Source: Candidatus Anderseniibacteriota bacterium
GTDB taxonomy: Bacteria > Patescibacteriota > JAUYIX01
Assembly (NCBI GenBank): GCA_046350855.1
Contig: JAXLZM010000005.1
Location: 9,331 to 73,330 of the forward strand
Direction of reading: 5' to 3'
Length of the DNA: 64,000 nucleotides
Position 1 is the first letter of the stretch. Each line of letters starts with the position of its first letter. This document shows positions 12,291 to 56,882 of this stretch, piece after piece. The notes under the pieces were generated by a model. The model made no database searches. It was not told the origin of the DNA and worked only from the letters and a program-made list of their open reading frames with translations. The translations under genes were made by a program, and so were the position numbers.

Positions 12291-12324
12291 GAGATGTATG
12301 TGCGTGTGCTGGAAGTTCTGCCAA

Positions 12325-12564
12325 TTAGAGCTTAAACGTCCGCGCCACCAGATCCACGTGACTTTCTTCTTTACTGGGATCTTCGGGCAACAATGGTAAC
12401 AGGATGTCGCGGATTTTCAAGGGGTTCTCGTTGAGCAGCTCAATAGACAGCTCGTTGATCACCCGCGTGCGGCGTTGCAAGTGGAGTTGTTTGAGGGTGG
12501 GTGGTTCATACAAAATCCAAAATTTGGAGAACTCACGCCAGGGGTAGAACTGCTCGTTGAGCAT
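12325..12564 (-). CDS. Small hypothetical protein
   Basis: 79-aa ORF following the tRNA. No domain recognised. Confidence 0.3.
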   Translation of the reverse strand: MLNEQFYPWREFSKFWILYEPPTLKQLHLQRRTRVINELSIELLNENPLKIRDILLPLLPEDPSKEESHVDLVARTFKL

Positions 12565-12656
12565 GAGTCCCAGACTAAAAAGCGTACGCGCAGACGTTTG
12601 TTTTTACGGTGACACTGGTAAAAAGGACCAAGGCGAGGTGAGCCAAGACGGCAGCA

Positions 12657-14422
12657 CTAAGGTAGAGACGCAGGACGATCGTGAGGGCCACCAGACCGGC
12701 AAAGACGCCGACAATATATTGATAAACCAACCGCGTAGCGCGCCGCGGTTGAGTGAACTCTCACCTGTAAATGGGAACACCCCGCTGGGCCGCGGACTGC
12801 GTATCGCCGTTTTTGGCCCTTTCGATCAGACGACCGCCTTCCGTCGATGACGGGTTGCCCGCTACCGTCTCGCTCATGGCGCGATTGGGCGCTCCAGGAG
12901 TGATGGTTTGGGCGTTGACCTGCTTGGTAAGATTGGCCGTGCCTTGCCCGGTGGCGGCAGCGGCTCAGGCTTTTTTTTACGATTAAAATGAGGCCCATGG
13001 CGCGTTTGGTTTAGCATGGCTTAGCGCCGACTTGCCGAGACCGCAGTGCCGCCCGCGACGATAGTGGTATGGTTGACCCTGCTCGGGGCTCGTAGAGCGC
13101 GTTTGGGTAACTCGGGCACAATCGTGAACTGGTAAGGATTTCAGCGAAACTGACCTGTTCGATCGCGTCTAACTCTTTGCGCTGGTCTGGGGTCGTCGCA
13201 ACGAGATGGCATGACCACCCGCCCCGGTCGGGCGCAGGGTTCGCTGGGTGCGGCACGTAGTCCCTTAGGTGTTAGTGGGTAACCAAAGCCGAGCACGAGC
13301 TCGAACCCGGTCACGTCGATGCCGCGCGAGGCGATGTCCTCACGGCGACCAAGACTCGGTACTTACCATCAGCGCCCGCCAGCGCGTCGCGGCGTTGTCC
13401 GAGGGAGCGGTTGGCGTAACTCGGCTGCGGTGTGGCCGAGATCACGGATCTTACGGGTCAGTTTTTTGGCACCGTACAATTTCAGGTGTGTAAAGATCAG
13501 CGTTGTGCCGCGGTACTTCGTATATTTGGCTGCGAGATCCAACTTAGACTCTTTTAAACATAAAGATTTCTTGGGTAACGCGCTCGGCGGTGAGCCTGCG
13601 GGGCTACCTCGATACGGATCGGTAGCCGCATGTAGCGCTTGGCCATACGCATGATTTGTCCGGCACGGTGGCCGAGAACAGTACAGAAGGTCTGTCGCTC
13701 GTAGGCTGCTCAGAAAACTGTTCGATCTGCGGGCAAACCCCATATCGAGCATACGATCAGCCTTACTCAACACGACGATCCGCGTGGCGTCTAAGCACCG
13801 TTCTTTGTTGTAGGTGATCGTTGAGCTGACCGCGTTGTTGAGGATCACGACGTGCGGATTTTTGCAGGCAGCGCACCGTTAGTGTCCGCATCGAGGCGCC
13901 TCCGATTAGACCGCCGTGCGCAGCCAAAATCCGGCGCCGACTGTACGTGGAGCGCCTCGTCCACTTGCAGAGCGAGTTCCCGAGCTGGCAGGATGATCAA
14001 CCTGGACCGCGCGCACTTTATCGAGCTGCAGCAGCGGGATCCCGGGTGCGCCAAGGTTCAACGGTGCTGTCGGCAATGCCGTCTACATCTTTACCTTCGA
14101 TCGCCACGGGAATAGCCTGCCGCGTTGACGGGCGTGGGGGTGGCGTAGTTGAGTTGTGCGAGTTTACCGAGGAGGGTTTTGCGCGATGCCGAGTCCCGAA
14201 AATCCAGAAATGGCAAGGGCTGATACTGCACTAGCTGACGATACTGGTACTGGTTGAACAAAGTTCGAAGAAAAGAGAGCTACCGATGTTCCGGTAGCTC
14301 AGGTCGTGTTGTGGGTCTGACTTAGGCGGCGTAGGCGCGTCGCCGTCGCCGCAGCAGGGCGAGCGGCTCGCGAGTGGCGAGAGAAAGAGCTCCAGTGCCT
14401 CCTGGTCGTTGTGCCTGACCAC
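12657..14422 (-). pseudogene. Degraded DEAD-box RNA helicase (frameshifted, catalytic motifs mutated)
   Basis: Consecutive minus-strand ORF fragments carry, in order, AHPGSRCC (motif I GSGKT ruined), LIILPARELALQV (motif Ia), VVLSKADRMLDMGF (motif II DEAD changed to SKAD), LVATTPDQRKELD (motif V remnant) and CRHRARHGQ (motif VI remnant). They are split over at least five frames. Confidence 0.6.
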
Positions 14423-14445
14423 GTGTCGGGTCTGACCGATTGCCC

Positions 14446-15402
14446 TTACGTTTTTCCTGGATCAAGACACTGGCGGCTTGCAGGAGACCGACACGATAAC
14501 GAGCGAGCGCCTGCCGTGGTCCAGGCGTTCGATGGCGCGCATGGCCGTGTCAGGGTTATTCGAGCAGATACGCGGATATATTCGCCCTGCGCCAACATTC
14601 TCGGGCGCATGGGGAGCGTTTCGCACGCTGCGAACGGTCGCGCCCGGTCAAAGTCGATCATGACCAGCGAGGTTCCGCGCATGCGTGCACTTGAGCAACA
14701 CACTGGCGTTGCAGTTGTTGGCGAGGCGGGCAGCGTGTTCCAGTAGCCGACCGGGTAGCTGGTCAAAGGCCTCCCGGTTGATCTGCAGTCTGATCTTTCT
14801 CGTGAGGGTCGCGTGATACCATCGATAAGGTGCAACATGGTGTGCTGCACACTCCTGGTACCGTACCCAGGTTCCCAACGTTCCTGATCGTAAAGGCGCG
14901 CACGGCGTCTTGAAAACCGCGCGTCTCCTTAATCCGTATTTGCATGGCGTTCTTCCTCGCTTTTAAATGAGCATCAAAACTAGGCGCTACCCTACCCGAT
15001 CTTGGCGCACGACGCAATCTTTGGCAGCATGACCCAATGGTCGTACGCAATTGGTGGCACCTGGTTCAATACACAGGGCGTACCGGCCTTCGGAGCCGGC
15101 GTTGCGCTGGCGGTTACCACAGCAGTCCTCAATCTCTGAACCATCCCTCGGCTGATACTTCGTATGCCAGCCCACGTGGTCGAGCGCGGCTTTTGCCTAA
15201 CCAGGTTTGGTACTTTGCATTTGGGCCGGATTTGCAATACCGTAGCTAATTTTGTGACCTCGCTCACGCCGATTGTGGTAAGTACTGACAGGAACTGTTC
15301 CATCCCCGTCATTACGCCCACGGTGTCGCTCGGTGATGACGGTCTCGCCTCGTCGAGCCAGGTAGTGCTGCGTCGAATCAATCGTTCAAAATCGTAGATC
15401 AA
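14446..15402 (-). pseudogene. Unidentified degraded gene (overlapping frameshifted minus-strand ORF fragments)
   Basis: Four overlapping minus-strand ORFs of 76-136 aa in different frames form one ~1 kb fragmented reading unit. No confident family assignment. Confidence 0.3.
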
Positions 15403-16048
15403 GCCCAGCTACCAAAGGTGTTTATCTTGTGCTGCTCGTAACCATTTCAGATGTTAGTCGGCAGAGTCCCCTTTATCGGCATCCAGCTTCGGTGGCGGCC
15501 GTCTCCTGCTCACGCCCTGTTCTGGCTTCAACTCGGTGGATCGCCGGACGCGAGCCCTGGAATGCCGCCCGGCATTACCGGCTGATCAGCGCTTCGCCTT
15601 CGTAGCGACGGGACGACCGTGGCGAGATGGTGCCGATGGTCACGAGTACACCCGGCGGACGAGTGCGCCGGTGTATCGACGGTTCAAACGATGGGTGGAT
15701 TTAAGGCGAAATCGCTTTGCTCGTCGATCTCAGGAAAGAGCGTCGCGGCGACCGTATTCCCGGTGTACCTGGTCGCCGAGCTTCGTCCAGCGGCAAAGAG
15801 CCTACTGCACAGAAAGGCGTTATGCATTGGGTTTTTTTTTTTTTATTAGGGGGATCTGTCGCAGGGAGCCTGAGTCACGCGGACAGGCAAACACGCATAC
15901 TGTTTGCTCACGTGCCAGGTGCCACACATTACTTCCCGCGCGCCGAAAGAGCACTTGGCAAAATTGTTTGGATCTATTCCCGCCTTCGGATGTTTGGGCT
16001 GGGCTTGTGCACGGGATTGGATACCCTCCCGGGTCTGTTGCCGCGGTG

Positions 16049-16519
16049 ATGACCCCCGGAGCTGGCACACGGCCGGGTCGCACGGTCAACACCTATACCA
16101 TTGTGTTGGTCCTCTCAATTTTTGGAGTGTTGGTCCATCTGGCTTGGTATGTGCTCCACCGCCTCAAGCACTACGCGCAGCTCCCGCACAATACGCAAAC
16201 GATTCTGCGTACTTTTTGGCTGCGACCGATCTGGCTCGTCGGTTGTCTACTTGCGCTTGGTTGGGTACTCGCTAGTCCCAAGTCACATATCGGTCTGGCC
16301 TGGCGTAATGTGCTCTCTGGGAGCGCCATACACTATGACCGACAACTGCTCGATCGCTACGCACACATTAAAAATAGTTCCGAGCAGGACGTGTTGGTCC
16401 CGGCCCTAACTGATGTGCCGACCACGCTCTTTTTTGATGACATCACCAGCGATCCGCTCGATTGGCGTAATACCAGCTACGCACGTTTTTTTGGCAAACG
16501 AACTATCATCCGTCGCTAG
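16049..16519 (+). CDS. Hypothetical membrane protein (two predicted TM helices)
   Basis: C-terminal 156 aa of a long Arg-rich spurious-looking ORF. This part has a plausible hydrophobic profile (IVLVLSIFGVLVHLAWYVL; IWLVGCLLALGWVLA). Confidence 0.3.
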   Translation: MTPGAGTRPGRTVNTYTIVLVLSIFGVLVHLAWYVLHRLKHYAQLPHNTQTILRTFWLRPIWLVGCLLALGWVLASPKSHIGLAWRNVLSGSAIHYDRQLLDRYAHIKNSSEQDVLVPALTDVPTTLFFDDITSDPLDWRNTSYARFFGKRTIIRR

Positions 16520-30124: not shown

Positions 30125-30299
30125 GAGTTGTAGTGCTACTAGTGGGCTCGATCTCTGATCGAGCCCCTCTTTTTGTGCAAGTTGACAAAAGAGCCTTTTT
30201 AGTGTAAGGTGTGTGTTTGCTCTTTAACTGGTACGTCTAGAACCCGTGGCATGGTGCTGTGGGTTGTCGGACAAGCCAAGTACCAAGGAGAACACTCAA

Positions 30300-30971
30300 A
30301 TGGCAAAGGCCAAGACCGCAAAGAAGAAGTCGGAGACGGCTTCTGCGATCGGTGTGTACGCCAAGATCTGGATCGCGATCGAGGCAGCCGTGCTCGCCAA
30401 GGGCGGCACGTACAACGACCTTTACTCGCTCAGCGAGACCAAGGACGCCACCCTGATCAACAAGTTCGCGGAACTCGTGGTCACCTCCAAGAATGGCGCC
30501 AAGAAGGTTGCCGATAAGGTCGTCGACGTGATGGCCGGTTACCTCCAGCGCCTGACCGTTGCCTGCAACTTCTCGTACGTGTGGGACGGCATCACGGAGG
30601 CTCGCTTCCCGATGCCGACCAAGCCCGTGAGTGAGAAGCTCGAGTACGTGGTCTACTCCATCAAGCAGGCCATGAACCGCGCTGAAATCATCGCTGCCAT
30701 GGCTGCCGAGGGACTGCGGCCCGCCACCCTGTACGAACTGCTGGTCTGGGCTGCCAAGAACCCGCTCGAAGGCACTCAGTACTGGGTGGTTGCTCTTGAG
30801 CAGTACTTCACGGATTCCGGCGGCAGCCTCGACTTCGCCTACATCAACCCCTATGGCTACGGCAGGCGCGAGCTCGACTACGGCTGGATCAACCGCCTCA
30901 GCGATCGGTGGAGCGCCGACGGTCGTTTTCTCGCCGTCCGCAAGTCGAGCGACGAGCCCTTGGCCACTTAG
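30300..30971 (+). CDS. DGR target (variable) protein with C-terminal VR
   Basis: AAGGAG 8 nt upstream of the ATG at 30300. The C-terminal 144 nt equal the TR except at TR adenines. Confidence 0.8.
   Translation: MAKAKTAKKKSETASAIGVYAKIWIAIEAAVLAKGGTYNDLYSLSETKDATLINKFAELVVTSKNGAKKVADKVVDVMAGYLQRLTVACNFSYVWDGITEARFPMPTKPVSEKLEYVVYSIKQAMNRAEIIAAMAAEGLRPATLYELLVWAAKNPLEGTQYWVVALEQYFTDSGGSLDFAYINPYGYGRRELDYGWINRLSDRWSADGRFLAVRKSSDEPLAT
30804..30947 (+). repeat. DGR variable repeat (VR)
   Basis: 144-nt match to 31278..31421 with 21 differences, every one at a TR adenine. Confidence 0.85.
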
Positions 30972-31277
30972 TTCCTTGGAACTCATAGAGACCACCTGGT
31001 CTCTTGGTTCCCGCCCTCGGAAGACACATGTCTTCCGAGGGTATTTTTTATCTGCTACTATTTTTTGGGATCGCGACTAGTCAGGCTACAGCTTGACCAA
31101 TCAAAATCTCGGTTCATTCTAGGCCAGGATCCCGTCGGTCAAGACTTACGGGAGCGTGCTTGCAGTGAGCCAAATAAAACATGACTTGGTGTAGTTAGTT
31201 GGAGAGCTTGCAGCTCCAAACATAGATTCAGTCGGGAGATATTCAACCGACGGTGACACGGATGGCTTTCTACACAC

Positions 31278-31421
31278 AACTTCACGGATTCCGACGGCAA
31301 CCTCAACTTCGCCTACATCAACCCCAATGGCAACGGCAGGCGCAAGCTCAACTACAACTGGATCAACCACCTCAGCAATCAGTGGAACACCGACAATCGT
31401 TTTCTCGCCGTCCGCAAGAAA
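31278..31421 (+). repeat. DGR template repeat (TR)
   Basis: Invariant A-rich copy (AAC codons) of the VR. Lies between the target gene and avd/RT. Confidence 0.85.
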
Positions 31422-31432
31422 TGTTTTATCTA

Positions 31433-31852
31433 CTATGAGGGCCCGTAACCAAACGTTGCGGGCTTTTTAGTAGCCGATTTTTGCCATCCGCCCAGCATGC
31501 GTCCTACTTCAGCAAGCGGCGTACTGATATGTGCATATTTTTTGTGATCAATCAATTTGAGTTCCCACGCAATTTGTAAAAAGAATTTGAGTGTATCAAG
31601 TGTGCTGCTTGCTGCGCGTATAAGGTCTGCTTTACGCTTTGGGCTGGCAAAACAGGCCTGCAATAATCGAGTAATTAAATCTAAAAAAAGAGTCTCGATC
31701 CGTCCGCCAATTCCTTGGTGTGCTAGCCGTGGTAAGTTTGGCAGCGTTCCATACCAGGTTTTATATGCTAATGATGCACGTTGTAGAATTGGCGCATCTG
31801 GAGATGGCTGGGGGGGGGTATTCCAAGCACTATGAAACGGTTGCTGAACCAT
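31433..31852 (-). CDS. avd: Avd-like accessory variability determinant (four-helix-bundle protein)
   Basis: ASSTLDTLKFFLQIAWELKLIDHKKYAHISTPLAEVGRMLGGWQKS matches the four-helix-bundle / 23S-rRNA-IVS protein family used as DGR Avd. It is on the opposite strand to the TR and RT. Confidence 0.6.
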   Translation of the reverse strand: MVQQPFHSAWNTPPQPSPDAPILQRASLAYKTWYGTLPNLPRLAHQGIGGRIETLFLDLITRLLQACFASPKRKADLIRAASSTLDTLKFFLQIAWELKLIDHKKYAHISTPLAEVGRMLGGWQKSATKKPATFGYGPS

Positions 31853-32830
31853 ACGTTTGAGCAGGCTATATCACTTGAGAATTTACTGCTAGCTTGGCAG
31901 GAGTTTGCTACTGAAAAGCGTTATAAGCTGGACGTGGCCCATTTTAGTTTGAGGTTATTTGAAAATGTTCAGCAGTTGCAAAAGGAGCTTGAGGATGCCT
32001 CGTATCAGCACGGTGGGTATTATCGGTTCCGAGTGTGCGATCCAAAACCACGTGTAATTCATAAAGCAACTGTGCGCGATCGACTGTTACATCACGCATT
32101 GTATCGCGTGCTCTATCCATTTTTTGAGGATACGTTTTGCAGCGACGTGTTTTCTTCTCTCAAAAATAGGGGCGCTCATGCGGCACTCTCTCGTTTTGCG
32201 CATTTATACAATAGGGTAAGTCATAATAGTACGCGGACTTGCTGGGTCCTAAAATGCGATATCGCAAAGTTTTTTGACACAATTGATCACGAGATTCTTA
32301 AAAAACTACTCGAGGCTAGAGTCGAGGACAAAAAGCTACGTGTGCTCTTAAGCACGGTTATTGATAGTTTTTCGGTCCTACCTGGTAAAGGTCTACCGCT
32401 CGGCAACTTAACTTCACAATTGTTCTGCAATATTTATTTAAGTCACTTCGACAACTTTGTTAAACATTCGGTGCGTGCAAAGACCTATATTCGTTACGCA
32501 GACGATTTTGTAGTTATGTCGGATCGACGTGATTTTTTAGAGACACTTATTCCAAAGTTTGCAGATTTTCTGCAAAAAGAACTTAGACTCTCGCTGCATC
32601 CGCGCAAAGTGTCAATCAGCACAGTCGCATCAGGTGTCGACTTTTTGGGGTGGGTGCATTTTCCACATCACCGAGTCTTAAGGACCAAGACAAAAAATCG
32701 TCTACTGCGTCATGTCGCGATCTCTCCTCATACACCAACGATTGCATCATATCGAGGCTTACTAAAGCATGGTCATGCTAGACGCATTGAGCAAAAGCTT
32801 GCCTCGATTGAACTCTTTGGCAGGCTGTAA
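31832..32830 (+). CDS. DGR reverse transcriptase
   Basis: RT motifs VLKCDIAKFFDTIDH, LPLGNLTSQLFCNIYL (the DGR-specific SQ..N motif), YIRYADDFVV (YxDD) and GVDFLGW. Confidence 0.9.
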   Translation: MKRLLNHTFEQAISLENLLLAWQEFATEKRYKLDVAHFSLRLFENVQQLQKELEDASYQHGGYYRFRVCDPKPRVIHKATVRDRLLHHALYRVLYPFFEDTFCSDVFSSLKNRGAHAALSRFAHLYNRVSHNSTRTCWVLKCDIAKFFDTIDHEILKKLLEARVEDKKLRVLLSTVIDSFSVLPGKGLPLGNLTSQLFCNIYLSHFDNFVKHSVRAKTYIRYADDFVVMSDRRDFLETLIPKFADFLQKELRLSLHPRKVSISTVASGVDFLGWVHFPHHRVLRTKTKNRLLRHVAISPHTPTIASYRGLLKHGHARRIEQKLASIELFGRL

Positions 32831-32869: not shown

Positions 32870-34978
32870 TTGGTTATGAGCCGTGTGGTTCTGCCAAAAA
32901 ATCAGGCTAAAACGCGGGTTACAAAGCTGCATGAACTGATCAACAAAGAGCGCTACAACGTGCACGTGCTCGATCGCTCGACCATGTCCGAGGCGGCCCT
33001 CGACTCGCTTAAAAAAGAGCTGTTTAATTTGGAGCAGGCCTATCCGGATCTCGTGACGCCCGACTCGCCGACCCAGCGCGTGGCGGGTAAACCCTTGCCA
33101 GCGTTTACTAAGGTTCGGCAGCCGGTGCGGATACTCTCACTCAACGACGCGTTTAGTTTAGAGGATCTGCAGGAGTGGGAGACCCGTCTTAAAAAGGTAG
33201 AACCGCGCGGAGACTACTCGTATTTTTGTGAACTCAAAATCGACGGGCTCGACATCGTGCTCAAGTACGAGGACGGCATGTTTGTGCAGGGTGCCACGCG
33301 CGGGGATGGACAAGTGGGAGAGGATGTCACCCAAAACTTACGAACCATCGATGCGATTCCGCTGCGACTTGATGTAGAAGCCTTCGAGAAAAAGTTCAAA
33401 CGTAAGTTACCGCGTACAGTCTACGTGCAAGGTGAGATTTATTTGCCGATCAAAGAGTTTGAACGCATCAACGCGGAGCAAAAAGCCAAGGGCGGTACGC
33501 TCTATGCCAACCCGCGCAACACCGCCGCGGGGTCGATTCGGCAACTGGATGCCAAATTGGTGGCTGACCGTCGACTCTCTATTTTTATTTTCAATATTTT
33601 GACGGACTTGGGTCAGCGTACGCACGAGGAGCTGCACGAGATGGCGTTTACCCTGGGTTTGCCGGTGGAACCGCACAGCAAACTGTTTAAATCGATCGAG
33701 GCGGTGGATGCGTATCTCAAAGAGTGGGACAAAAAGCGCAAGGGCTTGCGCTACCAAACGGATGGGGCGGTGGTGCAAGTAAATGATGCGCGTTTGTTTG
33801 CCACACTGGGCGTGGTTGGTAAGGCGCCACGTGGCGCTATGGCCTACAAATTTGCTGCAGAAGAAGCGACCACAAAAGTGCGCGAGATTATGATCTCTGT
33901 TGGTCGTACCGGTGCCCTCACCCCGATCGCGGTCATGGATCCGGTGCTCGTGGCAGGTACGACGGTCTCGCGCGCCTCGATGCACAACGAGGACGAAGTG
34001 CGCCGCCTCGACGTGCGGGTCGGTGACACGGTCATCATCCGTAAAGCGGGGGATATTATTCCGGAAGTGGTGCGCGTGCTCAAAGAGTTGCGACCGGCCA
34101 ACGTCAAAGGTGACAAAAAACAATTTACGATGCCCAAGACCTGTCCAATGTGCGGGGGCAAGGTGGTCAGGCGTACGGGCGAGGCGGCGCACTACTGCGC
34201 CAATCCAAAATGCTTTGCGATCGACCGTGAGCGCGTGATCCATATGATTTACGCCTTTGATATTTATTTTGTCGGGCCCAAGCTGATCGACAAATTGTTT
34301 GATGCAGAACTGATCCGCGATGCCGGCGACATCTTTAGCCTCAAAGTGGGTGATTATGAAGGCTTGCCAAACTTTGGCGAAGTATCCGCGCGCCGTGCGT
34401 ATGACGCAGTCGCCGCAAAAAAGAAAATCGAACTCGCTCGCTTGCTCTGGGGGCTCGGTATCAGACACGTGGGCGGGGAGACCGCGACCGACCTAGCTCG
34501 TCTGATCGTTGCGATGTGGCACAAGCGCGCAAACGGTAAAACCAAAAGCGGTTCTGCCGGACCAATGCTCTCCGACCTGATCGACTTTTTGCCTTCGGTC
34601 ACGCTCGAGGGCTGGATGAACACCGAAGGCATCGGCGATGTGGTCGCCAAAAGCTTGCAGGCGTATTTTGCCAACAAAGAGAATCTCAAATTCCTCAAAA
34701 AACTGCAGGCGGCGGGGGTTGCGATTGTTCTGCCAAAGCGTCAAAAAACAAAGCTGGCGGGCAAGACCTTTGTACTGACCGGTACGCTCGAAAAATTCTC
34801 GCGCGAGGTGGCCAAGCAAAAGATCGAAGACTTGGGCGGCTCGGTAGCCAGCAGCGTTTCGAGCCACACGGACTATGTAGTGGTTGGGGCAGAGCCGGGT
34901 TCAAAAGCTAAAAAGGCTAAAGAATTGGGCGTCAAAACTCTCACGGAAGCGCAATTTGTTACCATGCTCGGGTCATGA
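32870..34978 (+). CDS. ligA: NAD-dependent DNA ligase
   Basis: KxDG adenylation motif (ELKIDGLDIV), Zn finger CPMCGGKVVR...C, HhH and C-terminal BRCT. 702 aa. Confidence 0.9.
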   Translation: MVMSRVVLPKNQAKTRVTKLHELINKERYNVHVLDRSTMSEAALDSLKKELFNLEQAYPDLVTPDSPTQRVAGKPLPAFTKVRQPVRILSLNDAFSLEDLQEWETRLKKVEPRGDYSYFCELKIDGLDIVLKYEDGMFVQGATRGDGQVGEDVTQNLRTIDAIPLRLDVEAFEKKFKRKLPRTVYVQGEIYLPIKEFERINAEQKAKGGTLYANPRNTAAGSIRQLDAKLVADRRLSIFIFNILTDLGQRTHEELHEMAFTLGLPVEPHSKLFKSIEAVDAYLKEWDKKRKGLRYQTDGAVVQVNDARLFATLGVVGKAPRGAMAYKFAAEEATTKVREIMISVGRTGALTPIAVMDPVLVAGTTVSRASMHNEDEVRRLDVRVGDTVIIRKAGDIIPEVVRVLKELRPANVKGDKKQFTMPKTCPMCGGKVVRRTGEAAHYCANPKCFAIDRERVIHMIYAFDIYFVGPKLIDKLFDAELIRDAGDIFSLKVGDYEGLPNFGEVSARRAYDAVAAKKKIELARLLWGLGIRHVGGETATDLARLIVAMWHKRANGKTKSGSAGPMLSDLIDFLPSVTLEGWMNTEGIGDVVAKSLQAYFANKENLKFLKKLQAAGVAIVLPKRQKTKLAGKTFVLTGTLEKFSREVAKQKIEDLGGSVASSVSSHTDYVVVGAEPGSKAKKAKELGVKTLTEAQFVTMLGS

Positions 34979-35667: not shown

Positions 35668-35958
35668 ATGGCAATTACCCCGCAGCAGGTAGAACACGTG
35701 GCGACCCTGGCGCGTATTGGACTGACCCCGGAGCAAGTCAAACACTACACCGAGGAATTACGTAAGATTTTGGCCTTTGTGGAACAGCTCAAAGAAGTCG
35801 ACACTACCGATGTGCCGGAGACCTCGCACGTGACGGGACTGAATAACGTCACGCGTCCCGATGCGACGTTGCCACCCCTCGATCGCGAGACGTTTTTGGA
35901 TGGGGCACCCGCGCACCAAGATGGACAGCTAAAAGTTAAGGGAGTCTTTAGCGCATGA
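35668..35958 (+). CDS. gatC: Asp/Glu-tRNA amidotransferase subunit C
   Basis: 96 aa, ITPQQVEHVATLARIGLTPEQV... Confidence 0.8.
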   Translation: MAITPQQVEHVATLARIGLTPEQVKHYTEELRKILAFVEQLKEVDTTDVPETSHVTGLNNVTRPDATLPPLDRETFLDGAPAHQDGQLKVKGVFSA

Positions 35959-48122: not shown

Positions 48123-49391
48123 ATGACGACCAGTACAGTCTCAACTAAGACCATAAAGCAGCCGACCGTCATTAAGCGGGACGGTTCGGCCGTGCCTTTT
48201 AACAAGGAACGTATCGCAAATGCTATCGCTAAAGCGGGTGCTGCAACCGGAGAAATTGGCAGGGCTGAAGCTTCAAAACTAGCCGAACGTATCACACATT
48301 TTATCGTTCGCTCGTACTCTGCGGGTCAACATAAAATAAAACCGGTGCAGGCCAGGGTTACGGTCGAACAGATTCAGGACATCGTCGAGTTCGCCCTAGC
48401 CAACGCCGGGCACTTTAAGACCGCACGGGCCTACATCGTCTACCGCGAAAAACGTGCCCAAGCCCGCTCGGTCGGAGGCGTCGCCGTCGAGGTAGAAAAA
48501 ACCATTGGCGAGTACGTTGATAAGCAAGACTGGCGCGTCAATGCCAACGCCAACCAAGGCTATTCACTAGGCGGCCTGATCCTCAACGTCTCTGGCAAAC
48601 TTATCGCCAATTACTGGCTGAACTTTGTCTACACCAAAGCCATTCGTGATGCACATGTCGACGGAGATATGCATATTCATGATCTGGATATGTTCTCGGG
48701 CTACTGCGCCGGCTGGAGCTTACGACAACTGCTAGAAGAAGGTTTTAACGGGGTCCCGGGTAAATGTGAGTCCGCTCCGCCTAAACACCTCGAGACGGCC
48801 GTCGGACAAATGGTTAATTTTTTGGGCACCCTCCAAAACGAGTGGGCTGGGGCACAAGCTTTTTCGTCCTTTGATACGTATTTAGCCCCATTTGTAAAAA
48901 TAGACAAGCTCGATTTTGAGCGGGTTAAACAGTGTGTCCAGCAGTTTGTCTTTAACCTCAATGTGCCCTCACGCTGGGGCACCCAAACGCCCTTTACCAA
49001 CATCACCCTCGACTGGACCGTGCCCGAGGATTTAGCATCCAAGCATCCGGTTATCGCCGGCGTCACACAAAAATTTACCTATGCCGATTGCCAAGCCGAG
49101 ATGGATTTGCTCAATCGTGCTTTTATCGAGGTCATGACCGAGGGCGACTCCAAGGGTCGGATTTTTACCTTTCCGATTCCGACCTATAATCTCACCAAGG
49201 ATTTTGATTGGGAGAGTGACAACGCCAAAGTACTGTTTGAAATGACGGCTAAGTTTGGCATCCCGTACTTTCAAAACTTTATCAACTCCTCGCTCAAACC
49301 TCAGATGTGCGTAGCATGTGCCGCCGACTGCAACTCGATTTGCGAGAACTCCGCAGTCGGGGCGGGGGACTGTTTGGTTCGGCCGAAATGA
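48123..49391 (+). CDS. nrdD: Anaerobic ribonucleoside-triphosphate reductase NrdD, N-terminal ORF segment (gene interrupted by frameshift)
   Basis: ATP-cone and class III RNR core. Conserved sequence runs to ...FINSSLKPQMC, then the frame is lost. Confidence 0.8.
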   Translation: MTTSTVSTKTIKQPTVIKRDGSAVPFNKERIANAIAKAGAATGEIGRAEASKLAERITHFIVRSYSAGQHKIKPVQARVTVEQIQDIVEFALANAGHFKTARAYIVYREKRAQARSVGGVAVEVEKTIGEYVDKQDWRVNANANQGYSLGGLILNVSGKLIANYWLNFVYTKAIRDAHVDGDMHIHDLDMFSGYCAGWSLRQLLEEGFNGVPGKCESAPPKHLETAVGQMVNFLGTLQNEWAGAQAFSSFDTYLAPFVKIDKLDFERVKQCVQQFVFNLNVPSRWGTQTPFTNITLDWTVPEDLASKHPVIAGVTQKFTYADCQAEMDLLNRAFIEVMTEGDSKGRIFTFPIPTYNLTKDFDWESDNAKVLFEMTAKFGIPYFQNFINSSLKPQMCVACAADCNSICENSAVGAGDCLVRPK

Positions 49392-50275
49392 CCGGCAGTA
49401 TCGGGGTGGTTACGCTCAACTTAGCGCGCATCGGGTACTTAGCTAAGAGCAAGGAGGACTTTTTTGCTCGAGTGGGACGACTGATGGATCTGGCCAAAGA
49501 CTCGCTCGAACTCAAACGCAAAGTGGTGGCCGAGAACATCGAGCGGGGCCTCTTGCCCTTTACCAAACGCTACTTACCGAGTCTGCACAACCACTTTGCC
49601 ACCATCGGGATCAACGGTGCCAATGAGGCCTGCCTCAACTTTTTGGGTAAAAACCTTGCAGACCCTGAGTCGACAGCACTCATCACCGAGCTCCTCGGCT
49701 ACATGCGCACGCGACTCGCGGATTACCAAGAAAAAACCGGTAACCTGTACAACTTAGAAGCCACGCCGGCCGAGGGCACAACCTATCGCTTTGCCAAAGA
49801 GGATCAAAAGCGTTTTCCGGGGATCGTGCAGGCGGGTACCGATATGGCGCCCTACTACACCAATTCAACACATCTCCCGGTCGACTTTACCGACGATCCA
49901 CTCGGCGCACTCGATCATCAGGATCCACTCCAGACTAAGTACACGGGCGGTACGGTTCTCCATCTCTTTTTGGGTGAACGTGTTCACGATTGGCAAACCT
50001 GCCGCGCTTTTGTGCGCAAGGTGGCCGAACATTACAAACTGCCCTACTTTACGATCACGCCTACCTTTAGCATTTGTCCGACGCATGGTTACTTGTCCGG
50101 CGAACAGTCGCACTGTTCGATCTGTAATGCAACCTGTGAGATCTGGTCACGGATTGTGGGCTACTTTAGACCGGTCGAACAATGGAATAAAGGCAAAAAA
50201 AGTGAGTATGTGGATCGCCTCGAGTACTCCGCTCAAAAAGCGACCGCGCAAAAAACGACAGAGGTTGCTCGATGA
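49307..50275 (+). CDS. nrdD: NrdD C-terminal ORF segment (continues the conserved sequence in another frame)
   Basis: MCRRLQLDLRELRSRGGGLFG...SIGVVTLNLARIG, then a zinc ribbon C...CxxC and the glycyl-radical motif RIVGYF. Confidence 0.8.
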   Translation: MRSMCRRLQLDLRELRSRGGGLFGSAEMTGSIGVVTLNLARIGYLAKSKEDFFARVGRLMDLAKDSLELKRKVVAENIERGLLPFTKRYLPSLHNHFATIGINGANEACLNFLGKNLADPESTALITELLGYMRTRLADYQEKTGNLYNLEATPAEGTTYRFAKEDQKRFPGIVQAGTDMAPYYTNSTHLPVDFTDDPLGALDHQDPLQTKYTGGTVLHLFLGERVHDWQTCRAFVRKVAEHYKLPYFTITPTFSICPTHGYLSGEQSHCSICNATCEIWSRIVGYFRPVEQWNKGKKSEYVDRLEYSAQKATAQKTTEVAR

Positions 50276-53226: not shown

Positions 53227-54918
53227 ATGAAATTAAGCTACAACTGGCTCCAAGAATTTGTCCCGCTTGACGTAACGCCCCAAAAATTGGCGGATTTATT
53301 GACCATGAAGGCCGCCGAAGTTGAGGGCGTCGAGATTTTGGGGCAAGACATTACTAAGGTCATCGTCGGTGAGATCCTCGAGATCCGGCCACACCCCAAG
53401 GCTGACAAATTGCAGCTCACCAAGGTCTCGATCGGCAAAGATATCTTAGAGATCGTGTGTGGGGCCAAGAATATTCGGGTCGGGCAAAAGGTGCCGACCG
53501 CCATCAATGGCGCGACATTACCGGGTGGCGTACAGATTGTGGCTAAGGAGTTACGCGGAGCTAAGTCGGAGGGCATGTTGTGTTCGGCCGATGAGTTGGG
53601 CTTGCCAGGCGTTGGCCCTGACGGAATCTTGATCCTCGATCCACAGTCGCCGGTGGGGGAGGACGTGCGTAAGGTCTTGGGGCTCGAGGAGGCCATACTT
53701 GACATCAAAGTCTTGCCGGACCGCTCGTACTTGCTCTCGCATGTGGGTGCGGCGCGCGACATTTCTGCGATGCGGGCAAAGACCCTCATGCTCGACAGCT
53801 ACGGCAAGACCGGGGCCGAGGCGATTACACATAGCCAAATTCCCAACGGCGGTTCGGTCAAGATTTTGGATCAGGTGCACTGCCCCCGCTACTCGATGAT
53901 TATGCTCTCCAACTTGCGTATCACCGCGAGTCCAGCCTGGCTCTCGACGCGGCTCAAACAGCTGGGTGTCAGACCGGTCAATAACCTGGTCGACCTCACC
54001 AATTACGTTATGCTCGAGCTGGGTCAGCCCCTGCATGCTTTTGACTCGGCTAAATTGCAGGGTCGTAAGGTAACGGTGCGGCGTGCTAAGGCGGATGAAC
54101 AGCTCACCACTCTAGACGGCGTCGCGCGTAAACTTGATCCGGAGGCCTTGGTCATTGCGGATGGCTCAAAACCAATCGCGCTCGCCGGAATCATGGGCGG
54201 TAAAGAGTCTGAGATCGGTAATCTGACCTCAGGTGCGTTGATCGAGTCCGCCAACTTTGAACCAAAAGGGATTCGCGCTACGGCCCAGCGGCTCAAACTG
54301 CGCACCGACGCCAGCATGCGCTATGAGCGGGGAGTGGACCCTAACTTGACCGCCGTCGCACTCGCTCGTCTGGTCGAGCTACTCCCGCGTGCTGGTCTGA
54401 TAGAGGCGCAATCAAGTCAAATCATCGACGACTACCCGGCCCCGCTCGTGCGCCAACCCGTGCGCTATAAACCGACCGAAGTCATGCGTCTGACCGGCAT
54501 CGATGTACCCCTCTCCGAGCAAATTCGCTTGCTGCAAGGTCTGGGGATGGCCATTGATGATCGCAACTTTGCCATTGAGCACGAGTTGTTCATCACGCCG
54601 CCCTCATTTAGACAAGATGTCACGACCAGCGCGGACATCGTAGAAGAAATCGTGCGTCTCTGGGGCTACGAGCGCATCCCGCTCACCCTCCCCTCCGCCA
54701 AGCTCCTCCCACAACCCTATGACGTCGATCGCCACTGGTCGCGCCGCGCCAAAAATATTTTGCGTGGGGCCCGCTTTAGCGAGGTTGAGACCTATAGTTT
54801 TGTCAGCAAGCAGCTACTCCAAACACTCCATTTTGATCCGCGCGAGCACATCGCCCTCGCTAACCCATGTCACCTGAGCAAGCCTACTTGCGCTCGAGTT
54901 TGGTCCCAAACCTCCTGA
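53227..54918 (+). CDS. pheT: Phenylalanine--tRNA ligase beta subunit, N-terminal ORF segment (frameshifted gene)
   Basis: tRNA-binding domain, B3/4 and B5 domains. The frame is lost after ...ALANP. Confidence 0.85.
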   Translation: MKLSYNWLQEFVPLDVTPQKLADLLTMKAAEVEGVEILGQDITKVIVGEILEIRPHPKADKLQLTKVSIGKDILEIVCGAKNIRVGQKVPTAINGATLPGGVQIVAKELRGAKSEGMLCSADELGLPGVGPDGILILDPQSPVGEDVRKVLGLEEAILDIKVLPDRSYLLSHVGAARDISAMRAKTLMLDSYGKTGAEAITHSQIPNGGSVKILDQVHCPRYSMIMLSNLRITASPAWLSTRLKQLGVRPVNNLVDLTNYVMLELGQPLHAFDSAKLQGRKVTVRRAKADEQLTTLDGVARKLDPEALVIADGSKPIALAGIMGGKESEIGNLTSGALIESANFEPKGIRATAQRLKLRTDASMRYERGVDPNLTAVALARLVELLPRAGLIEAQSSQIIDDYPAPLVRQPVRYKPTEVMRLTGIDVPLSEQIRLLQGLGMAIDDRNFAIEHELFITPPSFRQDVTTSADIVEEIVRLWGYERIPLTLPSAKLLPQPYDVDRHWSRRAKNILRGARFSEVETYSFVSKQLLQTLHFDPREHIALANPCHLSKPTCARVWSQTS

Positions 54919-54955
54919 GTGTGGTCAAAAAAATATCGCCACGGGCCAAGGCGCC

Positions 54956-55660
54956 ATGTCCATCTACGAGCTCGGCCGGACCTTTAGCTATATCCGTAAT
55001 AAGCCCTACCCGCACGAGCCACTCATGTTGACCCTCGCCACCGTCTCGGCTGAGCCCCGCCCCGCCAAAGCGCGCCTCCAATCCGCTGCCACTCCGGCAG
55101 AACGTACGCAGCTCGCCGTAGTACTTGAGGATCTTCTGTTCCACTTTGGGCTCGATCCCAAAGTACTCGTGCGCAAACCCTTTACGGCCAATCCGGCTGA
55201 TTTTCATCCTGGCCGCACCGCGCTTCTCGAAATCAAGGGCGAGGACATCGGCTATTTGGCGGAGGTGCATCCGGCGGTGCTGTCTGCGCTCGATATCAAT
55301 AGGACCGTAGCAATCCTCGATCTTGAGTTTGCTAAACTAATTACGCTGGCCAAGGACGAACGCACCTTTAATGAGATCCCAAAGTATCCAGCCGTCCGTC
55401 GCGATCTGTCGCTCGTGGCCTCGCTTGAGCTCCCCGCGGCCGATCTGATCGAGACCATCACGACCGCAGGCGGGGAGTTACTCACCGATGTTGAGTTGTT
55501 CGACCGCTACCAAGGCGGCAAAGTCGGTGCGGGCAAAAAGAGCTACGCTTTCCATCTGACTTTTCGCTCGGACAAGCAGAGCCTGACCGACTCCGAGGTT
55601 GAACCACTCCTCAAAAAAATCTCGAGCGCGCTATCAAATAAGTCCGTTTTGGTTCGTTAG
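54956..55660 (+). CDS. pheT: PheT C-terminal ORF segment (FDX-ACB domain)
   Basis: The conserved motif continues as SIYELGRTF... in the third frame. C-terminal ...VELFDRYQG...SYAFHLTFRS. Confidence 0.85.
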   Translation: MSIYELGRTFSYIRNKPYPHEPLMLTLATVSAEPRPAKARLQSAATPAERTQLAVVLEDLLFHFGLDPKVLVRKPFTANPADFHPGRTALLEIKGEDIGYLAEVHPAVLSALDINRTVAILDLEFAKLITLAKDERTFNEIPKYPAVRRDLSLVASLELPAADLIETITTAGGELLTDVELFDRYQGGKVGAGKKSYAFHLTFRSDKQSLTDSEVEPLLKKISSALSNKSVLVR

Positions 55661-55698
55661 TTTCGAATCCATCCTGTGGATTAGTCTACACGTTCTCT

Positions 55699-55733
55699 GC
55701 TTGCATAAGGGGGGGGGTCTATATACTAGTTAT
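55699..55733 (+). promoter_or_regulatory. Putative promoter with a G9 homopolymer in the -35/-10 spacer; leaderless start
   Basis: TTGCAT, then a 15-nt spacer containing GGGGGGGGG, then TATACT, then 6 nt, then ATG at 55734. Confidence 0.35.
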
Positions 55734-56882
55734 ATGAAAAAATTACTTTCTAGCCTATTGTTCGCTGTCGTTACGACTGTCTTTTTTAACAACAGTAACC
55801 AAGCCCAAGCCGCCTTTAATGGCATCAAGCGCCTAGAAGGCGCAGATCGCTTTTTGACCGCTGTGGAGATTTCTAAGGAGGCATTTTCTGCGGACGGTTC
55901 TGCGGCCGTGGTCTATCTATACAACTCAGACAACCCAATAGATGCGTTATCTGCAGTTCCTCTGACTCAATTCGATAAAACCCAAGATCCAGCCTTTGGC
56001 GTTTCATACCAAGGCCCACTCTTGCCAGTAGAACATGGGACTACCATAACCACTGAAATTGCTGCAGAAATTAGTCGAGTTTCATCCCTGAGTGCTGGTA
56101 ATAGAGTAACAATTTTGGGAGGACCAAACGCGGTCTCTTCGATGGTTGAATCACAGTTAACCAGTCAAGGACACGTTGTTAATCGCATTGCTGGACTCAA
56201 TCGTTATGGTACGGCGGCCGAAATTGCATCTATGATTAAAAGTTTGGTTGCACCTAATGTTCCGGATATTTTTGTCGTCAACGGCGAATCCATTGCCGAT
56301 GCACTCGCCGTCTCGCCTCTCGCTGCTTCGTTAACATATACTACTGATCCTTCTTTCAATAACTATGGCGATGTAATCCTATTGACTTATAAAGATGCTG
56401 TTCCCAACGAGTCCAAGGTCTACATTAACAGCCAAAGCGGGGGCACCTTGACGATGGTCGGTGGCACGAGCGTCATTAGTAAGCCAGTTGCAGAGCAACT
56501 GGCCGAACGTCACTGGGGGGACCCAAGTAACTATTCCCGCTTTGATGGAAAAGATCGTTTCCACACTGCGCGGATAATCGGAGATAGATTTACCGATAGT
56601 GGTAGCTCCAATATGGCTTTTGGTGTTGGGCTCGCCAATGGACTCACAATGGCCGATGCACTACCCGCGGGCGTTTTGCTTGCGCAACAGTATATGCCTT
56701 TACTTCTAACCTCGGGCGAAAACATTAACTGTGATACCGCTCGTTATGTTGAGCGGTACGAATTACTTTTTGACCGCGGCTACGTGTTTGGCGGTTCTGC
56801 TGCAGTCTCGGTTACAGCTGAGGATCAGTTACAATCTCTTACGAACGGCGATACTAATGCCGCTAATCTCGGCTGTGTCTAA
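55734..56882 (+). CDS. Cell-wall-binding repeat (CW_binding_2-like) surface protein with signal peptide
   Basis: Three R..G.DR(F/Y).TA..I repeats (RLEGADRFLTAVEI, RIAGLNRYGTAAEI, RFDGKDRFHTARII). Signal peptide MKKLLSSLLFAVVTTVFF. Local GC is visibly lower than its surroundings. Confidence 0.65.
   Translation: MKKLLSSLLFAVVTTVFFNNSNQAQAAFNGIKRLEGADRFLTAVEISKEAFSADGSAAVVYLYNSDNPIDALSAVPLTQFDKTQDPAFGVSYQGPLLPVEHGTTITTEIAAEISRVSSLSAGNRVTILGGPNAVSSMVESQLTSQGHVVNRIAGLNRYGTAAEIASMIKSLVAPNVPDIFVVNGESIADALAVSPLAASLTYTTDPSFNNYGDVILLTYKDAVPNESKVYINSQSGGTLTMVGGTSVISKPVAEQLAERHWGDPSNYSRFDGKDRFHTARIIGDRFTDSGSSNMAFGVGLANGLTMADALPAGVLLAQQYMPLLLTSGENINCDTARYVERYELLFDRGYVFGGSAAVSVTAEDQLQSLTNGDTNAANLGCV

Follow-up and report, generated by a model that had tools for sequence, protein, structure and literature searches.

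Results

The CWB2 gene and its genomic neighborhood

The locus described here comes from a MAG of Candidatus Andersenbacteria (Parcubacteria/CPR), an uncultivated, ultra-small bacterium. Within the window, by which we mean the whole 64-kb stretch of DNA that was analyzed, a gene for a cell-wall-binding CWB2 protein is flanked by pheT and by a gene for a hypothetical protein, with gyrB following the latter downstream.

53227..55660 (stop codon 55658-60), plus strand: pheT, phenylalanyl-tRNA synthetase beta; Pfam matches; broken by two 1-nt deletions
55661..55733, plus strand: pheT-CWB2 intergenic region, 73 nt, without a terminator, a stable fold or an Rfam match
55734..56882, plus strand: CWB2 cell-wall-binding protein gene; identified by Pfam; NCBI MFO0705116.1
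56902..58293, plus strand: gene for a 463-aa hypothetical protein; weak, sub-threshold BNR_4 match

The CWB2 product is 382 aa long and contains three PF04122 repeats (Pfam, E=3e-37), together with an N terminus, MKKLLSSLLFAVVTTVFFNNSNQAQA, that on inspection is a typical Sec signal peptide, and a conserved C-terminal NLGC. Three tandem CWB2 repeats and a secretion signal are what define this protein family, and both are present; the NCBI name of MFO0705116.1 is "cell wall-binding repeat-containing protein." The assignment of the gene as one for a cell-wall-binding surface protein, made in the original prediction, is thus borne out by the PF04122 repeats and the signal peptide. The start of the 463-aa gene lies 19 nt beyond the CWB2 stop codon, and the two genes are probably co-transcribed.

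To place the CWB2 protein in an evolutionary context, we compared the locus with orthologous loci from relatives. In the relative designated L003, identity to the window is about 50% for CWB2, 82% for pheT, and 93% for gyrB, and across the five loci L002-L005 and L095 the corresponding values are ≈50%, 67-82%, and 87-93%. Moreover, L002 encodes two tandem CWB2 paralogs, whereas the window has one CWB2 gene and the 463-aa BNR-like gene. Given this paralog difference, and given that CWB2 is so much less conserved than pheT and gyrB, the surface protein appears to turn over rapidly, and such a fast-evolving target raises the prior for phase variation. On the other hand, the gene order pheS-pheT-CWB2-gyrB is common to most of the orthologous loci, which marks CWB2 as a core-like rather than an accessory gene and counts against phase variation.

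Anatomy of the CWB2 promoter region

The sequence immediately upstream of the CWB2 gene was read directly, with the −10 hexamer assigned from the sequence together with the comparison of orthologs described below.

55701-55706, plus strand: −35-like hexamer TTGCAT
55707-08, plus strand: AA between TTGCAT and the G9 tract
55709-55717, plus strand: G9 homopolymer, about −25 to −17 from the ATG
55718-21, plus strand: TCTA between the G9 tract and the −10 hexamer
55722-55727, plus strand: −10 hexamer TATACT, 6 nt upstream of the ATG
55728-33, plus strand: AGTTAT between TATACT and the ATG
55734-36, plus strand: ATG start codon of the CWB2 gene

Direct reading gives a distance of 15 nt between TTGCAT and TATACT, and the layout of TTGCAT, G9, TATACT, agttat, and ATG is as originally described. 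Homopolymers of about 8 nt or more are long enough to slip, and the G9 at 55709-17 is of this kind. The proposal that the tract forms the spacer between a −35 and a −10 element finds partial support: its position relative to the ATG is that of a spacer, but TTGCAT agrees with the consensus TTGACA at only three of six positions, all of them in the TTG, and from base composition we estimate by hand that a TTG would fall in a usable position by chance about 10% of the time. It is the sole TTG of this promoter, placed at 15 nt, and TATACT carries no TGn extension. Inspection of the 6 nt that separate TATACT from the ATG revealed no purine-rich SD, in agreement with the original prediction. A TANNNT that ends about 6-7 nt before a start codon lacking an SD is the arrangement expected of a leaderless transcript, and TATACT-agttat-ATG displays it.

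The G run might instead act at the level of RNA, with the CWB2 gene translated from mRNA that reads through from pheST and the run serving as an SD-like or standby site or as a structural element. Such a role would be compatible with the result of a terminator scan, which found no terminator between pheT and the CWB2 gene, with the GGAGG-type SDs that precede other genes in the window, and with the GGGAGGG that occupies the equivalent place in L002. However, 16 nt separate the 3′ end of the run from the ATG, more than a functional SD spacing; the RNA fold of 55661-55733 is no better than that of shuffled sequence (z = +1.2); an Rfam search of the intergenic region at E<=1 returned zero matches; and the conserved −10 at 6 nt favors a leaderless transcript that would exclude the run altogether. 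We consider this role highly improbable. The terminator scan, the fold z score, and the Rfam search also rule out the G9 as a terminator or a structured RNA. An alternative start codon, for which the G run could serve as an SD, was considered as well and rejected, since none of ATG, GTG, and TTG occurs in frame from the tract up to 55734.

Leaderless-type promoter geometry in orthologs and across the window

We retrieved seven orthologous genes, all with ≈50% protein identity to the window CWB2 gene, and anchored their promoters on the ATG. TAnnnT precedes the ATG in all seven, at 6 nt in six of them and at 9 nt in the remaining one, as in the following promoters.

L003: TTGTTC-17-TATACT-6-ATG
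L095: TGgTATATT-6-ATG
L002, gene 1: TGcTACAAT-9-ATG
L002, gene 2: terminator hairpin, then TGgTATACT-6-ATG
L004: TACCCT-6-ATG
L005: TGgTAAAAT-6-ATG

The spacers are G-rich in some orthologs (GGGAGGG in L002, GGGCCC in L003), and a G tract or homopolymer is absent from all orthologous promoters examined. Comparison of the promoters thus ran counter to the expectation of a shared, variable tract, no ortholog carrying it. Because the closest relatives are only ≈50% identical and do not have the tract, the orthologs cannot date or polarize the G9.

The same geometry recurs across the window. TANNNT is found 6 or 9 nt upstream of 8 of the 34 curated starts, where chance would give 0.3 in each distance bin (Poisson P about 2e-7), and an exact-pattern scan identified further starts with the 6-nt geometry at 35668, 20600, and 18940. 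The leaderless-type starts, and those promoters with a −35 hexamer at 17 nt, are as follows.

TANNNT with a 6-nt gap, starts at: 17574 (minus strand), 18940 (minus strand), 20600 (minus strand), 24620, 35668, 39224
TANNNT with a 9-nt gap, starts at: 24553 (minus strand), 32876, 34975, 38306
Start 32876, −35 at 17 nt: TTGAAA-17-TAGCAT
Start 38306, −35 at 17 nt: TTGCAC-17-TAGACT
Start 35668, −35 at 17 nt: ATGACA-17-TAGGAT

The geometry conserved in seven orthologs and its enrichment at the window starts together make it well supported that TATACT is a real −10 hexamer and that the transcript is leaderless or has a very short leader, with its predicted start at or adjoining the A of the ATG; the original prediction of such a transcript is therefore upheld on sequence grounds. 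The predicted leaderless geometry is common in this Andersenbacteria genome, and since GGAGG-type SDs occur in the same window as these promoters, the organism would use both modes of initiation. In Mycobacterium tuberculosis, Cortes et al. (2013; a study cited in PMC12641261) are said to have described leaderless genes with TANNNT ≈6-7 nt upstream of the start, no SD, and transcripts that begin with the start codon itself. The geometry of these actinobacterial promoters is the same as that in the window, but the lineage here is CPR/Parcubacteria, and the literature searched contained no account of leaderless initiation being widespread in CPR.

These promoters also bear on the standing of the −35 hexamer. 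A TTG-type −35 at exactly 17 nt does occur in this clade, both in the same gene of L003 and in the window at 32876 and 38306. By analogy to L003 and 38306, TTGCAT is a plausible −35, although its presence is possibly due to chance. TGn extensions are frequent among the leaderless-type window promoters, and most of the other orthologs carry one whereas the window CWB2 promoter does not, an argument for the importance of a −35 in this case. Of 16 candidate window promoters, however, about 4 (17574, 24620, 20600, and 17174) have neither a −35 nor a TGn; it may thus be enough to have the −10 by itself, or some unknown factor, in which case spacer length would be irrelevant.

Tract length at the CWB2 locus and accuracy of the assembly

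An exact-protein look-up identified one Logan contig (L001, run SRR26348421) that covers the locus in addition to the window, for two assemblies in all; when GTDB genomes and JGI metagenomes were scanned with gapped patterns of the flanks, no further copy was recovered. This second assembly also has G9, from reads that are possibly not independent of those of the MAG. The two sequences are identical over 3.3 kb but for one 3-bp in-frame indel (GAT) at 55198-55200 in pheT, so the window and L001 are not the same consensus; another contig of this Logan run, L082, likewise departs from the window, in the VR of the DGR described below. The length polymorphism that phase variation would entail was thus sought among assemblies and did not appear, both (n=2) having G9, in what is a very weak test.

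How far this length can be trusted depends on the assembly, which has three or more 1-nt deletions in conserved genes of the window.

54864-66, plus strand: pheT, 1-nt deletion in CCC, repaired by adding one C
54927-33, plus strand: pheT, 1-nt deletion in A7, repaired by adding one A
Near 49296-49306: nrdD, 1-nt deletion that splits the gene into 48123-49391 and 49307-50275

Adding the one C and the one A yields a continuous pheT that matches its orthologs, and the truncated 563-aa pheT product is recorded from the NCBI MAG only. The deletions are most likely residual (long-read) assembly errors. Each of the three indel errors detectable in the window removes 1 nt, and two of them fall in homopolymers; errors of this type make homopolymer lengths here unreliable by 1-2 nt, such that the CWB2 tract could be G10-11. 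The 15-nt spacing might then be an assembly artifact, the true sequence being an ordinary TTGCAT-16/17-TATACT promoter with a tract of G10-G11 that would still be mutable. In keeping with this, the spacing in L003, the closest relative, is exactly 17 nt. Against it, the Logan contigs of SRR26348421, a run that is possibly not independent, give G9 both at the CWB2 promoter and at a second tract, in the DGR described below. A miscount of this kind seems to us quite unlikely.

Rarity of long G and C runs

We next asked how unusual such a tract is in its surroundings. The GC content of the window is 54.9%. It contains seven G runs of length 6, none of length 7 or 8, and two of length 9, and its longest C run is 6 nt, so that just two G/C runs in the 64 kb reach a length of 7, at 55709-17 and at 31810-18. 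Markov simulations of order 1-5 gave 0.1-0.4 expected G/C runs of at least 9 and a probability of 0.005-0.045 for two or more. Metagenome loci related to CWB2, 403 kb in total, are free of G/C runs of at least 8, and none of 78 loci has a poly-G/C close to other CWB2 genes. The G9 of the CWB2 promoter exceeds chance and is a rare object in such DNA. The longest homopolymer run of any kind in the window is a T13 at 15832-15844, whose surroundings (≈4 kb, roughly 12300-16500) contain no Pfam-recognizable genes and give no Rfam match.

These counts weigh on the possibility that the tract is neutral, with the gene expressed from a constitutive, −10-driven leaderless promoter, the G9 being a lineage-specific expansion of a G-rich spacer and its slippage mere noise. 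The tractless orthologous promoters, the several window promoters that have no −35 at all, the equal length in both assemblies, and the conserved core-gene neighborhood would all fit a neutral tract. Yet with G/C runs of at least 8 absent from the 403 kb and runs of 7-8 absent from the window, it is unlikely that such a run would land by chance in the spacer of a surface-protein gene, and the window promoter also lacks the TGn found in most of the orthologs that have no −35. We regard neutrality as doubtful but as a serious possibility.

A second G9 tract at the avd/RT junction of a DGR

The other G9 of the window lies within a complete DGR with the following components.

30246-32830: DGR, complete
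Ending at 30971: target gene, protein of about 223-241 aa, no Pfam match
30805-30944: VR
31279-31418: TR
31433-31852, minus strand: bAvd, PF22296, E=6.5e-13
31810-31818, plus strand: second G9 tract, avd/RT junction
31832-32830, plus strand: RT, RVT_1 match, LPLGNLTSQ motif

All of the features by which a DGR is recognized are present, namely an RT with LGNxxSQ, a bAvd, and adenine-specific TR/VR differences, the TR/VR pair differing only at TR adenines. When the window is compared with Logan contig L082 (run SRR26348421), 12 of the 14 differences fall in the VR, which marks the DGR as active.

The tract is 13 nt upstream of the ATG of the RT (31832) and inside the 5′ end of the bAvd ORF, at about codons 12-14. 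Among relatives with RTs that are 49-99% identical, wherever the tract is found it sits at the avd/RT junction, and it varies in length.

Window (reference RT): G9
L082, RT 99% identical to the window: G9
L083, RT 82%: G11
L084, RT 66%: G10
L085-L094, RT 59%: G10 or G9
L100 (38% GC), RT 49%: G11

The tract is absent at L097-L099, which are three of the four closest IMG/VR loci. Within L085-L094, a set of 10 contigs with identical RT, the length is G10 in seven and G9 in three. The 590 nt upstream of the RT start contain a single SNP besides, and both of its alleles are represented among the G9 contigs, a distribution that indicates recurrent slippage at this tract. Judged from these contigs, slippage of poly-G in CPR populations is fast enough to be observed, and at the avd/RT junction such a tract has been conserved; the DGR poly-G is a candidate phase-variable switch of DGR activity. 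As a conserved and length-polymorphic element, it is both better supported and more novel than the CWB2 tract; we found no report of a conserved, length-variable poly-G at a DGR avd/RT junction in the literature searched.

The two tracts are alike in being G9, on the same strand, and upstream of an ATG. They differ in that the DGR tract is conserved in position with lengths of 9, 10, and 11, whereas the CWB2 tract is lineage-specific and is G9 in both assemblies. Homology between them is ruled out because their flanks share nothing. We also considered whether the CWB2 G9 could itself be part of a DGR (an IMH or TR end) and rejected this, given that the TR/VR pair ends ≈390 nt before the other tract.

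Discussion

Taken together, these features make the CWB2 promoter a plausible candidate contingency promoter of the known porA/tp0126 class. The interpretation that we tentatively prefer, while holding it to be somewhat short of an even bet, is that phase variation at this promoter provides a mutable dial on expression, specific to this lineage and of the kind seen in porA or tp0126. A sigma-70-type promoter would in this case direct a leaderless mRNA (or one with a leader of 0-3 nt) for the secreted, wall-anchored CWB2 protein, and the same transcript would probably include the 463-aa gene. TATACT would cause transcription to begin with the A of the ATG, and the G9 would fill the spacer. TTGCAT, the one −35 candidate of the TTG type, would thereby be kept at an unfavorable spacing of 15 nt for which no TGn extension would make up, so that the promoter would be weak on paper. 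Replication slippage at the G9 would yield length variants, among which G10 and G11 would restore a spacing of 16-17 nt and increase transcription, whereas G8 would decrease it. We infer the use of the −35, the slippage at the CWB2 tract, and the effect of its length on expression; the dial would act on a fast-evolving surface protein. To our knowledge, nine-G runs slip during replication in all bacteria studied, and the length variation of poly-G at the DGR tract in related CPR supports, without proving, the same behavior at the CWB2 promoter.

The closest parallels come from two pathogens. In Neisseria meningitidis, a poly-G between the −35 and −10 of porA tunes expression (PMC3639595; PMC7864442). 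In both promoters a poly-G (about 9-11 Gs in porA) precedes the −10 of a surface protein gene and follows a −35, which for CWB2 is a candidate one, and in porA the number of Gs determines the spacer length and gives graded expression, not a strict ON/OFF state. However, the length variation of porA and its effect on expression were demonstrated experimentally, whereas both assemblies here have G9; the porA mRNA has a leader and an RBS, while the CWB2 transcript is predicted to be leaderless with a weak −35; and the porA host is a host-adapted pathogen rather than a CPR bacterium.

In Treponema pallidum, the tp0126 promoter likewise has a poly-G between the −35 and −10, with the best transcription at a 17-nt spacing (PMC7864442). 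As with tp0126 and the tpr genes, the tract here is a promoter poly-G on a putative surface protein in a small-genome organism, but the treponemal variation was established by fragment-length analysis and reporter assays and affects several paralogous genes with tracts, as opposed to a single gene known here from assemblies alone. In T. pallidum populations, one length dominates (e.g., about 81% G9) alongside minority variants (PMC7864442). Since such populations still switch, an identical consensus of G9 does not exclude switching at the CWB2 promoter.

CPR cells depend on surface contact with their hosts and also encounter phages. For such cells a mutable promoter on a fast-evolving, wall-bound protein, if real, would offer a cheap means of surface variation in a genome of ≈1 Mb. 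Host-adapted pathogens account for nearly all known cases of homopolymer-driven phase variation, and the literature searched yielded none from Candidate Phyla Radiation bacteria; if the dial is real, the porA/tp0126 class would gain a member in a phylum for which no such report was found. Should the CWB2 tract prove invariant, the locus would still illustrate cleanly how a leaderless promoter is built in Parcubacteria.

It is also conceivable, although in our estimation unlikely, that both G9 tracts are genuine contingency loci, the one grading CWB2 transcription and the other switching DGR hypermutation on and off. Simple-sequence phase variation would then operate in free-living or episymbiotic CPR, and the activity of a DGR would be under stochastic, heritable control. 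The DGR tract makes this on/off switching directly testable with existing read data.
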